DNA of 4,607 nt from a virus (Duplodnaviria > Heunggongvirae > Uroviricota > Caudoviricetes): IMG/VR virus record IMGVR_UViG_3300028453_000030. One strand, 5' to 3'. The notes beneath the pieces were generated by a model. The model ran no database searches and was not told the origin of the DNA. It worked only from the letters and a program-made list of their open reading frames with translations. The stretch's first letter is position 1, and each line of letters opens with the position of its first letter. Of the stretch, positions 520-4,607 are shown one piece after another. Position numbers and translations under genes: made by a program.

Positions 520-1560
520 TTATTTAGACGCAAGCGCCGCCTCAATTGCAGATAATCTTTGTCTTAATTCTGCGTTTTCTTCTTCCAGTGCTGTTATTCT
601 GTCATCTGACTCTCTGGCTACCTGAACAAGCAAGCCAGTAACACCAGAATAATCTACTGTGTAATAACGTTCACCTTCTTCACCTTCCGATCCGCTTGCA
701 CCGTCCTGATATTTCATTGCGGAACCTACAACTTCTGGGATTGCTTCCAGAGCTTCCTGTGCAATGACACCAGCATAGGGCATACCGTTTTCTTTAAGCG
801 TGTATGTATAGCCGTTCATTTTACGGATGCGGTCGGTTGCATTATCGATCACCTGAATGTTGTCTTTCAGATCCCGGTCGGAATGCTGGTTAAATGTGGT
901 GGCATGACATGCACCATTAACGCTTAACATATAGGTGTTATCGGTATTTTTCTGCGCATAGAACATATAAGCGCCACCATCAACACCGACTTCATAAACA
1001 ACAGGACGGCTGGAGTTGCCCCACAATTGAGCAGTAACACCAGCATAAGCGGTTCCCTGTGTGTTTAATGTCATGGTTGACCCATGATTGGCATATTTGA
1101 TCTGTAATGTGTCGGTGTAATCAAATTTAATAAGCGCGTTACTTCCACGCTTGCTGTATGACATAAGGCAGTTACCCATTTTGAGGTATCCGCTGTCACC
1201 GGGAAAAATCATCGTACCGCCATAAAGGTTGGTAAAGTCCCAGCAAATGTTTGTCCCGTTATCGTTCAGGTTAAGGCGCGCCATTGCGTTACCTGGACTG
1301 TCTATCCATTTTTTGAGGTATAGTTCGCAATACGCATCCTCAACACCTGCCGTCCTGTGAGTTGAGCGGAGTTTTCTCCCAAATATAGCTCCGCTAGTTG
1401 GCAATACCTGCTGATACCATGAAACAGACCAGTCACCAACGATTTCATCTTTGCTGTCTACATATAATTTTGTTGCGTAGCTTCCTTGATCGTTTTTTAA
1501 TTTGCTAACGTCGGATTTTAGCGTTTTGATGTCATCAGGAATTACTGTCGATGTAGCCAT
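520..1560 (-). CDS. tail fibre / tailspike-like protein with C-terminal intramolecular chaperone (peptidase S74-type, endosialidase-chaperone) domain
   Basis: 346-aa ORF with RBS GAGG 7 nt upstream of the ATG at 1560. Residues ~227-346 (plus 523-882) read SDRDLKDNIQVIDNATDRIRKMNGYTYTLKENGMPYAGVIAQEALEAIPEVV...YYTVDYSGVTGLLVQVARESDDRITALEEENAELRQRLSAIEAAL. This is the S-D-x-x-x-K ... IAQE ... terminal coiled-coil pattern of self-cleaving C-terminal chaperone domains of phage fibres (K1F endosialidase, T5 pb1). The N-terminal ~226 aa are beta-rich with a short coiled-coil-like start. Confidence 0.85.
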   Translation of the reverse strand: MATSTVIPDDIKTLKSDVSKLKNDQGSYATKLYVDSKDEIVGDWSVSWYQQVLPTSGAIFGRKLRSTHRTAGVEDAYCELYLKKWIDSPGNAMARLNLNDNGTNICWDFTNLYGGTMIFPGDSGYLKMGNCLMSYSKRGSNALIKFDYTDTLQIKYANHGSTMTLNTQGTAYAGVTAQLWGNSSRPVVYEVGVDGGAYMFYAQKNTDNTYMLSVNGACHATTFNQHSDRDLKDNIQVIDNATDRIRKMNGYTYTLKENGMPYAGVIAQEALEAIPEVVGSAMKYQDGASGSEGEEGERYYTVDYSGVTGLLVQVARESDDRITALEEENAELRQRLSAIEAALASK

Positions 1561-1569
1561 TTTTCTTCC

Positions 1570-1851
1570 TCACATCCAGCCACGAAGTTGATGCTCAACA
1601 GCAACCACGTATTCATCGAATATTGACGATATTTGCGAATCATTAATGATGCGCACGTTTACAAAATATCCGTCTTCCTTAACACATACCGGTTCGCCAT
1701 CTTCAGTCAGTTCTCCGGTTTCTTTGTACACATTACCTATCACGTCAATAAGAATATCATCCTGCATCGACTCGTCATCATAATAGCCAATGCTCTCCAT
1801 AAAGGCCGAAAAGTCGGCCCTGTCTGCAAATTTGAGTGTTAAATCTTTCAT
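1570..1851 (-). CDS. small acidic hypothetical protein (93 aa), translationally coupled to the tail fibre gene; possible fibre chaperone or accessory protein
   Basis: The ATG at 1851-1849 overlaps the stf TGA stop (1850-1848) as ATGA, and GGAG lies 8 nt upstream inside the stf 3' end. The protein is D/E-rich (MKDLTLKFADRADFSAFMESIGYYDDESMQDD...). It has no resemblance to lambda Tfa; family not recognised. Confidence 0.55.
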   Translation of the reverse strand: MKDLTLKFADRADFSAFMESIGYYDDESMQDDILIDVIGNVYKETGELTEDGEPVCVKEDGYFVNVRIINDSQISSIFDEYVVAVEHQLRGWM

Positions 1852-4244
1852 TTAATACTCTCCCCCATTTGCGCATCAGTTAATTCTTTATGCCAGAGAC
1901 GAAGATTTCTCAAATGGCCGAATAGATGACGAGTTCCCGATGTGGCTTGACCTCCAATTCGAATAAAGGTCCGTGTTTTTACGCCCGTCCACTCCGTTTT
2001 CATAGTTTTAGTAGCCTCACCGTTAGAAACTACTCGTTTAGTACCATCAGAATAAATATTAAAACCACCAATGAATTTTCGAACATCAGTTCGACCAGCA
2101 AACACACTAGAAACGTAAGTACTTGTCGACGCTTTATAAGTTTGTATATAAAGCTGACCGTAATATTTCTCAGTTGTGTTAAAAGCGTATGTAATTGACT
2201 CAATAGGTGGCACACCAGAAAAATCAAAAATACGCGGTGCTACATTAGGAGGAATATCGCCCCAATTTCTATTGACCTCGACAAGACACGTAAGCGGTCT
2301 ATTATAGATATTATTTTCAGTTGGGATCGTCACCATATCACTGGAGCGGGTTGCGGGTGCAGTTGTCGTAATAACAAAAGATGAAGCACATCCGCCGTTT
2401 TCAAATTGTGGTGTTGCAAGGTAAATATAATCTCCCGCTTCAGTTATACCACCTTTTTTCGGCGCATACTGAATCATTGCGCCAATTAAGGCTTCACCTT
2501 CAACAGCTTCTATAGTTGCCTCATAGAAAATCCACCCTGTAACCGGATCTTTAGTTGCAGTAGCTGCTATTCTATTGGCTGCTCCGCCAGTTTTTTCTAT
2601 TATCAGAGTTCCGAAAGTTAAATAAGCATCTCCTAAAAATGTATAAACCGACCCATCGTATTTTTCAAAACGCAAACGACAACGAAGACCATCAGGAGCT
2701 TTAACCCTGCATGAAACAGTGCAATACTTATTATCGCCACTAACATCAATCCCCCGGGATGCACTGCATGTATGCAGACTAAGTGCAGATGATTGTCCTG
2801 TCATATTATCTTTTGTTCGCATTTTGGCATATAAAAAACCAAATTCATCAACACCATTATTAGTTTTATCGATATTGCTGGTACTCGTCCATTCAGCGGG
2901 AGTATTGGATTTAACAAAATAGTTAGTGCGCTGTCCTTCAATCAATAAACCTTCTTTTTCAAATCGTGGCTCATCAATTTTAGCAACACTAAATACGCCT
3001 GATTTATTGATATATGTGGCAGTTGATGCGCGTTTAAACTTAACAACCTTGTCGCCAGGCATCGTTATTTCATCATCACCAATAACAATTTTTTTATATG
3101 ACGGCGAAAAGCCCGTAATCATATCCAGTGAATCGTTAAACGGTATCCACACATCAGGCAGTGGCTGTAAGACATATTTATACGGCTCTGCTGCCTGACT
3201 TGCATACTCTCTGGCTGCGTCTTCACTTGCTTTAGCTGCTGTCTGGCTTGCTGCCGATGCTTTCGCCGAGTTCGCCGCTGCAGTCTCGCTTGTCTTTGCA
3301 TTGGTTTCACTGGTTTTTGCCGCTTTTTGACTGTTGGCTGATGCAGTGGCAGAAGCAGCCGCCGCGCTTGCAGAACCAGCTGCCGCGCTCTCGCTTTGGG
3401 CTGCTGCAACCTGGCTGTTTTTCGCCGCAGTTTCGCTGGCTTTGGCATTCGTTTCGCTGGTCTTCGCTGCCGTCTGGCTGGACTTTGCGTTAGTTTCACT
3501 CGTCTTCGCAGCTTTCTGGCTGTTAGCCGCAGCAGTTGCTGATCCAGCTGCTGAAGTCGCAGAACCGGCTGCCGCGCTCTCGCTTTGGGCTGCTGCAACC
3601 TGGCTGTTTTTTGCCGCAGTTTCACTGGCTTTGGCATTCGTTTCGCTGGTTTTCGCTGCCGTCTGGCTGGACTTTGCGTTGGTTTCGCTCGTCTTTGCGG
3701 CTGTCTCGCTATTTTTCGCGTTGGTTTCTGATTTTTTGGCTGCTGTCGCGGAGTTTGCCGATGCAGTCTTTGAGGTCGCTGCCGCCTGTGCACTATTAGC
3801 TGCATTCGTTTCTGAGGTTTTCGCCGCGTTCTTTGATGATGCCGCTGCAGTTTCGGATTTCTTTGCCGCCGCTGCGCTCTGAGAGGCGGCTTCGGCGTTG
3901 CGTGCCGCTTCTTCCACCATTACCTCAAAACGACGCAATGCCTCCGGCATGACATCCTCTTCCGTCATGGCACCGAGAAAATCATTCAGCGTGCCTGGTC
4001 TGGAACCTTCATAGACGGTAATGGTCCCGGCATGTGAAGGCGGAAAACCTTCAACCAGCAGGGTGACGCTGTACTGGCCATACTCAACATCCATGCTGTA
4101 ACGCCCGGCTTCATCCGGATTTTCAGAGGCCACCGTATTCACCAGTACCGTGGTGCTGTTACGCTTTGCTTTGAGCTGAATAGTGCAGTTCTGTATTGGT
4201 TTTCCTGCACCGTCTTTCAGCACGCCTGAAATCTGTACTGCCAT
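1848..4244 (-). CDS. stf: side tail fibre protein (Stf-like, 798 aa): lambda-type N-terminal domain, heptad-repeat Ala/Ser/Thr shaft, divergent C-terminal receptor-binding region
   Basis: ORF 1848-4250 on the track. I place the start at the ATG 4244-4242 (MAVQISGVLKDGAGKPIQNCTIQLKAKRNSTTV...), which has GGAG 5 nt upstream; the track's GTG at 4250 would add two residues. The N-terminal ~115 aa closely match lambda Stf (MAVKISGVLKDGTGKPVQNCTIQLKA..., recalled). Residues ~117-346 are AK.SETN-type heptads. The C-terminal ~450 aa (plus 1851-3212) are unlike lambda Stf and end ...FIRIGGQATSGTRHLFGHLRNLRLWHKELTDAQM, reminiscent of a LamG/concanavalin-like jelly-roll C-terminus. Confidence 0.9.
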   Translation of the reverse strand: MAVQISGVLKDGAGKPIQNCTIQLKAKRNSTTVLVNTVASENPDEAGRYSMDVEYGQYSVTLLVEGFPPSHAGTITVYEGSRPGTLNDFLGAMTEEDVMPEALRRFEVMVEEAARNAEAASQSAAAAKKSETAAASSKNAAKTSETNAANSAQAAATSKTASANSATAAKKSETNAKNSETAAKTSETNAKSSQTAAKTSETNAKASETAAKNSQVAAAQSESAAAGSATSAAGSATAAANSQKAAKTSETNAKSSQTAAKTSETNAKASETAAKNSQVAAAQSESAAAGSASAAAASATASANSQKAAKTSETNAKTSETAAANSAKASAASQTAAKASEDAAREYASQAAEPYKYVLQPLPDVWIPFNDSLDMITGFSPSYKKIVIGDDEITMPGDKVVKFKRASTATYINKSGVFSVAKIDEPRFEKEGLLIEGQRTNYFVKSNTPAEWTSTSNIDKTNNGVDEFGFLYAKMRTKDNMTGQSSALSLHTCSASRGIDVSGDNKYCTVSCRVKAPDGLRCRLRFEKYDGSVYTFLGDAYLTFGTLIIEKTGGAANRIAATATKDPVTGWIFYEATIEAVEGEALIGAMIQYAPKKGGITEAGDYIYLATPQFENGGCASSFVITTTAPATRSSDMVTIPTENNIYNRPLTCLVEVNRNWGDIPPNVAPRIFDFSGVPPIESITYAFNTTEKYYGQLYIQTYKASTSTYVSSVFAGRTDVRKFIGGFNIYSDGTKRVVSNGEATKTMKTEWTGVKTRTFIRIGGQATSGTRHLFGHLRNLRLWHKELTDAQMGESIK
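3213..3902 (-). repeat. coding 21-bp (heptad) periodic repeat region forming the fibre shaft
   Basis: The protein reads as consecutive heptads (AKTSETN, AKSSQTA, AKASETA, AKNSQVA, AAQSESA, AAGSATS ...). The DNA shows recurring gctttggc / gtttcgctgg / ctttgcg units. Confidence 0.7.
3370..3704 (-). repeat. in-frame tandem duplication, period 189 bp (63 aa, nine heptads), about 94% identical over ~146 bp per copy
   Basis: Copy 1 at 3370-3515 and copy 2 at 3559-3704 align with an offset of exactly 189 bp and about eight transition differences. The protein segment AKTSETNAKSSQTAAKTSETNAKASETAAKNSQVAAAQSESAAAGSA occurs twice. Confidence 0.85.
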
Positions 4245-4259
4245 ATTCACTCCACAAAT

Positions 4260-4290
4260 AAAAAAGGCGCCATTTCTGGCGCCCGTATTT
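4260..4290 (-). terminator. rho-independent terminator between the J remnant and stf
   Basis: Plus 4266-4283 is GGCGCCA-tttc-TGGCGCC (7-bp GC-rich stem, 4-nt loop). On the minus strand the hairpin is followed by TTTTTT (plus 4260-4265), then ATTTGTGGAGTGAAT-ATG of stf. The plus-strand side has only a weak T tract (cgtattt), so it works mainly for minus-strand transcripts. Confidence 0.6.
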
Positions 4291-4302: not shown

Positions 4303-4480
4303 TCAACTGATACTGATACCGGCTGTTGATTTCTTCATCACGACAACAAGAAGGTCGCTGATACTGGTCGTTGGCGTCCAGTTATTAGCACCATATGAAG
4401 AAACATTGAAAGTCAGGGTGACATGACCGTGTCCGGCAGGCATATCAATGACGGATGAAAATACCCTGCTGACATCCGTC
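4303..4480 (-). pseudogene. J: 3' fragment of the host-specificity / central tail fibre gene J (last ~58 codons), truncated at its 5' side by the IS insertion
   Basis: Minus-strand translation of 4306-4479 is [58 protein letters not shown], with TGA at 4305-4303. Lambda J ends ...VFSRIVDMPAGRGNVILTFTLTSTRHSADIPPYTFASDVQVMVIKKQALGISVV (recalled), giving the same VxDMPAG.G.V.LTF ... SD..V.V.KK...GIS pattern. The frame runs straight into the IS terminal repeat at 4481. The internal ATG at 4443 has no RBS. Confidence 0.7.

Positions 4481-4607
<127 letters not shown>

Follow-up and report, generated by a model that had tools for sequence, protein, structure and literature searches.

The open reading frame (ORF) at positions 520–1560 of the 4,607-nucleotide (nt) window analyzed here, which comes from the Caudoviricetes record IMGVR_UViG_3300028453_000030, encodes a 346-amino acid (aa) protein that probably forms the distal part of a two-part side tail fiber of an Escherichia coli lambda-like prophage and binds the receptor. 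The N-terminal motif of this protein would plug into a joint formed by the C-terminal domain of an Stf-type proximal fiber and a 93-aa protein, the C-terminal chaperone domain would trimerize it, and the chain would be cut between His226 and Ser227. All coordinates are window positions, and all relevant genes are on the minus strand: the 800-aa proximal fiber gene (1848–4250, an ORF matching PF08400), the 93-aa gene (1570–1851; PHROG 1361, function unknown) and the second fiber gene (520–1560, an ORF matching PHROG 4563 and PF13884).

The second fiber protein opens with MATSTVIPDDIKTLKS (residues 1–16; 1513–1560), a proposed docking peptide. The consensus of this motif, M[AV]T.T.IP.DI..LK, opens the second-fiber proteins of lambdoid, T1-like, T5-like, Dhillonvirus and Nonagvirus phages: the N-termini are MATSTVIPDDIKTLK in the window protein (lambdoid prophage), MATVTVIPSDITKLK in tuinn (T1-like), MVTKTVIPTDITKLK in Gp24 of IrisVonRoten (T5-like), MVTKTNIPADITALK in KarlBarth (Dhillonvirus) and MVTKTIIPTDITTLK in JenP1 (Nonagvirus). 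Stand-alone S74 homologs that are ~40% identical overall also begin with the motif, and in many homologs, it is followed by a variable number of short LK.DVS-type repeats; residues 11–29 of the window protein are predicted by AlphaFold to be helical. The first-pass annotation of this DNA had stated that the protein lacks an Stf-like N-terminal attachment domain, and indeed, PF08400, the Stf N-terminal domain, has no match in the 346-aa protein and is found only in the upstream 800-aa gene. The further claim that there is no recognizable virion anchor has to be revised in view of the conserved motif in the first ~15 residues, which always follows a homolog of the 93-aa protein.

The linkage between the motif and the two upstream genes is strict. 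A degenerate DNA pattern of the motif alone, for which the chance expectation in the window is 0.00, was used to search viral contigs; a homolog of the 93-aa protein is encoded directly upstream in 120 of the 120 contigs found in this manner, and the Stf C-terminal domain is present in 119 of these, the remaining locus having <300 nt of upstream sequence. When the loci are collected by the presence of a close homolog of the 93-aa protein, the next ORF starts with MATSTVIP in 79 of the 80. The same three genes are found on unrelated tail anchors in the Nonagvirus phages ESCO3 and JenP1, the T1-like phage tuinn, the Dhillonvirus KarlBarth and the T5-like phage IrisVonRoten, and two metagenomic homologs with 40% identity reside in T1-like contigs, behind a 646–653-aa fiber gene and a 91–92-aa gene. 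The C-terminal domain and the small protein without a second fiber are present in phage 21, Lambda_2G7a and the rV5-like phage nimi; the joint is thus constant, and the second fiber is an optional addition to it. It had been proposed that the 346-aa protein is a second receptor-binding protein docking on Stf, or else a distal tip supplied in trans; the association with Stf is substantiated by the tight linkage to the upstream gene, whereas the physical docking is what we infer from it.

The proximal fiber itself is a composite protein. The lambda-type anchor (3852–4244; PF08400, E = 1.6e-66) belongs to an N-terminal part that shares 90% identity with the fragment of lambda Stf resolved in PDB 9e7m (E = 1e-48). 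The shaft consists of Ala/Ser/Thr-rich, SETNAK-type repeats, among them a 189-nt (63-aa) tandem repeat at 3276–3710 (2.3 copies, 85% match); shorter periodicities of 21 and 42 nt are detectable as well. The C-terminal domain spans 440 aa (residues 361–800; 1851–3170) and contains the ‘GTA head spike fiber’ domain (NCBIfam NF048003, GTA_spike_fiber, E = 1.2e-16), with a relationship to the head spike fiber Rcc01080 of the Rhodobacter gene transfer agent (GTA; PDB 6tb9, E = 4.8e-10); a Pfam search yielded no S74 match in the 800-aa protein. The last ~435 residues of Stf are 48–58% identical to the fibers of five other phage groups, which, for a fiber end, is an unusually high level of conservation among phage groups. 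The G+C content falls from 0.55–0.58 in the anchor and shaft to 0.37–0.45 from the start of the C-terminal domain downwards (~3000–3300), and the homology to Nonagvirus ESCO3 starts at the same place (upper segment 2920–3167), so that the boundary between the shaft and the C-terminal domain looks like a mosaic joint.

The 93-aa gene occupies the position of tfa, with its start and the stf stop overlapping by 4 nt. Homologs of the 93-aa protein were identified by tblastn in 181 phage records that include lambdoid, T1-like, T5-like, Dhillonvirus, Nonagvirus and rV5-like phages, and the window protein is 38–54% identical to those from IrisVonRoten, phage 21, KarlBarth and tuinn; in every case inspected, the gene is located directly behind a fiber gene with the Stf-type C-terminal domain. 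AlphaFold predicts a small alpha/beta fold (predicted local distance difference test score, pLDDT, of 84), and a structural search with this model returned no informative match. The protein is proposed to be an assembly factor or a component of the joint. The characterization of this Stf as Tfa-independent is not supported: the 93-aa gene sits at the tfa position and accompanies the Stf C-terminal domain in all phage groups examined, including phage 21, and a 3′ remnant of a lambda-type tfa is retained at 65–184 (the same piece is annotated in RefSeq as ‘tail fiber assembly protein, missing N-terminus’).

An independent second fiber that is bound directly to the tail tip or tube and merely shares an operon with Stf and the 93-aa protein would account for the lack, in the 346-aa protein, of a domain with a known docking function, and several independent receptor-binding proteins are common in phages (10.1101/2024.09.12.612763); moreover, contact cannot be proven by gene linkage alone. 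Such an arrangement nevertheless appears rather unlikely, given that the gene with the motif follows the C-terminal domain and the 93-aa gene despite unrelated tail tips and anchors (lambda-type PF08400, T5 pb1-type, T1-like and Dhillonvirus N-termini), that the C-terminal domain and the small protein are the only parts common to those phages and that, among the 120 contigs, the motif gene was never found without these two.

The C-terminal part of the second fiber protein (residues 227–346; 523–882) is a Peptidase_S74 intramolecular chaperone, with Ser227 encoded at 880–882, Lys232 at 865–867 and the C-terminal helix (residues 304–345) at 526–651. The Pfam profile PF13884 matches residues 227–278 (E = 4.8e-14; 52.8 bits compared with the cutoff of 22), which confirms the S74 assignment that the first-pass annotation had made for the C-terminal 120 residues, and the signature quoted there is present, with SDRDLKDNI at residues 227–235 and IAQE at residues 266–269. 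The domain sits directly behind a T4 gp34-like domain and ends in a long helix predicted by AlphaFold (block pLDDT 67–89). A profile built from 66 homologs matched the chaperone of phage S16 gp37 (PDB 6f45, E = 2.7e-7), with HSDRDLK aligned to SSDRRIK, whereas the single-sequence search of PDB gave S16 gp37 at E = 0.001 plus weak gp34 hits only; the K1F and T5 chains were reached by neither the single-sequence nor the profile search of PDB. The catalytic pair is intact, as had been anticipated, with Ser227 and Lys232 each conserved in at least 90% of the 66 aligned homologs and matched to S16 gp37.

In T5 pb1, Lys1269 activates the scissile Ser1264, and the Thr1263–Ser1264 bond is cut (PMC4690869). 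The Ser-x4-Lys spacing in the second fiber equals that of Ser1264 and Lys1269, and therefore, the cut is predicted to fall between His226 and Ser227. The predicted products are a mature chain of residues 1–226 (25.0 kDa), in agreement with the earlier estimate of ~226 aa and ~25 kDa, and a released chaperone of residues 227–346 (13.2 kDa). The chaperones of T5 pb1 and the K1F endosialidase (S74 in MEROPS and Pfam) have the same organization, namely, a C-terminal domain that begins with Ser-x4-Lys, has a helical, coiled-coil end and is self-cleaved after trimer folding (PMC4690869); by analogy, the second fiber would likewise cleave itself and release the domain once the trimer has folded. Unlike the second fiber, T5 pb1 and the K1F endosialidase are long single chains with a virion anchor of their own.

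The GenBank record of phage ESCO3 labels the homolog ‘endosialidase chaperone’, and the locus lacks an intact tfa gene, which could be taken to mean that the 346-aa protein is a non-structural chaperone acting on Stf in trans. This is very improbable: the chaperone domain accounts for residues 227–346 only, S74 domains in the characterized cases act on their own chain (PMC4690869), and phage 21 and the rV5-like phages make the same Stf C-terminal domain without any second-fiber gene. Furthermore, residues 92–342 match the C-terminal ends of single-chain fibers of 1,210 and 1,567 aa (PHROG tail-fiber families), and therefore, the unit composed of the tip and the chaperone is found in two forms, one fused to an anchor and one as a short protein of its own.

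The second fiber gene is uninterrupted from its ATG, which is preceded, 8 nt upstream, by an AGGA ribosome-binding site and is located 9 nt past the stop of the 93-aa gene. PHROG 4563 (‘tail fiber protein’) covers the protein from end to end (346/346, E = 2e-220), its homologs in phage Tritos and in RefSeq are annotated as ‘tail fiber (domain-containing) protein’, and the ~346-aa length with an identical start recurs in ~40 of the 80 related viral loci. Given the full-length PHROG match and the recurrence of the ~346-aa form, the ORF is not a fragment of a longer disrupted gene, a possibility that had been raised in the first-pass annotation. The origin of the gene as a remnant, namely, the 3′ part of a longer, split or disrupted fiber gene, is hardly credible and was rejected, even though homologous sequence ends the long fibers of 1,210–1,567 aa, the locus is mosaic, with the tfa remnant and an insertion sequence (IS) element close by, and databases also contain shorter, 254-aa entries: the ORF carries a ribosome-binding site and an ATG of its own behind an intact gene, the start and length recur in isolated plaque-forming phages as well as in related loci, the N-terminal motif is kept in homologs down to 40% identity, and the 254-aa entries fit a start called at the internal Met93 (346 minus 92 = 254).

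Between the motif and the predicted cleavage site, the mature fiber consists of two regions. The middle region (residues 31–155; 1096–1470) is beta-rich, with strands predicted by AlphaFold at moderate confidence. It is followed by a conserved fiber domain (residues 156–226; 883–1095) that extends up to the cleavage site and is related to a repeat of the T4 proximal long tail fiber gp34: in this region, the profile of the 66 homologs matches 4uxe, 5nxf and 5nxh in PDB (E = 7e-9 to 2e-8). W180, G181 and R185 are invariant in the 66-homolog alignment, and the domain is the best-predicted block of the AlphaFold model (pLDDT 85–92). Within the 346-aa class, residues 31–110 are the most variable, with a conservation per position of 0.75–0.86, compared with values of 0.94 or more across most other positions. 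Foldseek comparison of the monomer model with PDB produced no match at E ≤ 0.001, the best ones being to T4 gp34 with TM scores of 0.15–0.18.

The fiber body is subject to replacement as a unit. The DNA of the window is 98% identical to that of PhiR49_1 between 4261 and 1517, the latter position falling in codon 15 of the second fiber gene, and the similarity resumes at 478. In the same slot (3340–4044 of the PhiR49_1 sequence), PhiR49_1 encodes a different, 234-aa fiber that shares the first 15 residues and contains SSIRYK, with the same Ser-x4-Lys spacing. The homology breaks at codon 15 and returns past the gene, and therefore, the fiber body behaves as a swappable cassette. A shorter class of distal fibers (227–241 aa), with identical first 15 residues, an unrelated body and the SSIRYK sequence, occupies this slot in ~28 of the 80 related viral loci. 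In the T1-like phage tuinn, the homologous gene seems to be split into ORFs of 166 and 45 aa.

In the set of 120 contigs, bodies of ~346 aa and of ~230 aa each occur with either variant of the motif, ATS or VTK. In a covariation test for the partner of the motif, these variants (motif residues 2–4) track the type of the 93-aa protein perfectly. The covariation was discarded as evidence of contact: the motif and the 93-aa gene are <20 nt apart, and DNA linkage explains the pattern equally well. The covariation is taken to indicate where recombination falls and does not prove that the proteins touch.

The gene is widely distributed. It is covered over at least 80% of its length in 512 of the 5,426 complete E. 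coli genomes, with some match in 771, and it is present in the isolated lambdoid phages Tritos, 2G7b and HannyBb and also in Nonagvirus phages; the 90% identity cluster to which the protein belongs includes 2,132 sequences of 346 aa. These numbers do not bear out the impression that the arrangement is out of the ordinary for a lambdoid tail.

Several observations weigh against the interpretation of the 346-aa protein as a distal subunit docked on Stf. Many of the 120 contigs and 80 loci are close relatives rather than independent cases. The case for physical docking is drawn from gene linkage, and the linked genes are adjacent, so that DNA proximity rather than protein contact could explain why the motif and the type of the 93-aa gene are inherited together. 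Phage 21 and the rV5-like phages keep the Stf C-terminal domain and the small protein without a second fiber, and therefore, the joint has a role of its own. The most variable residues, 31–110, lie near the N-terminus and not beside the chaperone, where the tips of T5-type fibers sit. The AlphaFold2 model of the monomer, computed with the 66 homologs, is poor (pLDDT 63, predicted TM score 0.36) and thus does not give the shape of the receptor-binding part. Finally, an IS element interrupts the tail-tip gene J in this genome, and the fiber may thus remain unused.

The closest described system is that of phage IrisVonRoten (Bas32 of the BASEL collection), which has the same three genes in the same order, encoding Gp22, Gp23 and Gp24. 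AlphaFold-Multimer models place Gp24, which bears an intramolecular chaperone, on the proximal fiber Gp22, with its lectin-like C-terminal domain (10.1101/2024.09.12.612763). Over the C-terminal ~435 residues, the IrisVonRoten proximal fiber and the window Stf share 52% identity; the 92-aa protein of IrisVonRoten and the 93-aa protein share 38%; and Gp24, like the window protein, starts with the motif (MVTKTVIPTDITKLK) and ends in an S74 chaperone. The two systems differ in the proximal anchor, which is of the T5 pb1 type in IrisVonRoten and of the lambda Stf type in the window. The distal fibers differ as well: Gp24 consists of 574 aa and has two predicted receptor-binding domains (‘T-shaped’), compared with the 346 aa of the window protein, which matches Gp24 only over the first 17 residues and residues 203–336.

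A second parallel is provided by the L-shaped, branched fibers LtfA/LtfB of the T5-like phages DT57C and DT571/2, in which, as proposed for the window, a second fiber without a tail anchor of its own is carried by the first. The branched fiber of DT57C has been studied genetically (PMC4728585). Both Ltf proteins have autocleavable pfam13884 domains, and both recognize O-antigens (PMC4728585, PMC10713586). The carrier LtfA ends in an S74 domain, whereas the window Stf ends in a spike fiber/lectin-like domain without S74; LtfB docks via a 45-residue N-terminus related to phiEco32 gp15, whereas the motif of the window protein is of another type; and no gene for a 93-aa protein has been described in DT57C. 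LtfA/LtfB is therefore a functional analog and not a member of the same family as the window system.

Compared with the lambda Stf/Tfa system, the window shares the tail anchor and the position after J. In lambda, a single chain reaches the receptor and requires the separate Tfa protein, whereas the window has a 3′ remnant of tfa, a different Stf end domain and a second fiber gene. A literature search found no description of this arrangement with an S74 second fiber in lambdoid phages; the genes are routinely annotated as tail fiber proteins. Thus, the principle has already been described for T5-like phages, and what is new here is its extension to lambdoid phages together with a defined plug. 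More specifically, the additions are the conserved 15-residue plug, its strict linkage to the 93-aa gene and the Stf C-terminal domain across lineages and the exact boundaries of the cassette.

The last ~60 codons of the tail-tip gene J (4303–4480) are preceded by the 3′ end of an IS3-family element, including the C-terminus of the transposase (4481–4607). The segment 4290–4480 is a 100% match to the 3′ end of intact gpJ genes and is cut off by the IS3-family element, so that the prophage in this genome is probably defective and its fiber genes are perhaps unused. A terminator-like hairpin lies between J and stf (4265–4284), and in phage 21, a terminator is annotated at the same place. Another terminator-like hairpin, GGGGCCGAGCGCCCC with a T-rich tail (499–513), begins 7 nt past the stop of the second fiber gene.

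Downstream of this second hairpin is a gene for a 97-aa membrane protein (184–477), with two membrane spans predicted in the annotation of phage 21. The DNA of this gene is 93–94% identical in PhiR49_1 and phage 21, and in the latter, it is located directly behind the 93-aa gene. Given the terminator-like hairpin before it, the 97-aa gene could possibly be expressed separately from the fiber genes. The tfa remnant suggests that an older region comprising the stf 3′ end and tfa was replaced by the block that consists of the Stf C-terminal domain, the 93-aa gene, the S74 gene and the membrane protein gene. Annotated E. coli prophages and the lambdoid phage Tritos have the same gene order, namely, J, (Lom), Stf, 93 aa, ‘tail fiber protein’ and a small hypothetical protein.

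The following scheme for the assembly of the two-part fiber can be outlined. The 800-aa Stf would be anchored to the tail via its lambda-type N-terminal domain and end in the conserved 440-aa C-terminal domain. The 93-aa protein, presumably made together with Stf in view of the 4-nt gene overlap, would form the joint with this domain. The 346-aa protein would form trimers assisted by the S74 chaperone at its C-terminus and, once correctly folded, each chain would cut itself between His226 and Ser227, with Lys232 activating Ser227, so that the 13-kDa chaperone is freed and the 25-kDa chain remains. The mature trimer would be held on the virion by the N-terminal ~15 residues and the short helical stretch, plugged into the Stf C-terminal domain, the 93-aa protein or both, either as a branch or as an in-line extension of the proximal fiber. 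The exchangeable fiber body would determine the surface structure that is bound first. By analogy with the lateral fibers of T5-like phages, which bind O-antigens (PMC4728585; 10.1101/2021.03.08.434280), this would most likely be an O-antigen or another glycan.

The side tail fibers decide which E. coli surface types can be reached by a lambda-like phage or a lambda-based delivery particle. The findings described here point to a modular design in lambdoid prophages, whereby a constant anchor and shaft and a constant joint are combined with a short exchangeable fiber that would need no separate chaperone to fold and be trimmed. The exchange takes place at sharply defined boundaries, codon 15 and the gene end, and the joint is common to T1-like, T5-like, Dhillonvirus and Nonagvirus phages. 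Provided that the joint functions in the proposed manner, distal fibers could be transferred by design between very different phages. A bolder and distinctly more tentative proposal is that the Stf C-terminal domain, the 93-aa protein and the 15-residue motif make up a portable plug-and-socket joint common to at least six coliphage lineages, in which the 93-aa protein is the structural adaptor that holds the plug. Should this be the case, any distal body placed behind codon 15 could be mounted on a lambda-type tail, and the joint would represent a natural, ready-made system for host range exchange.

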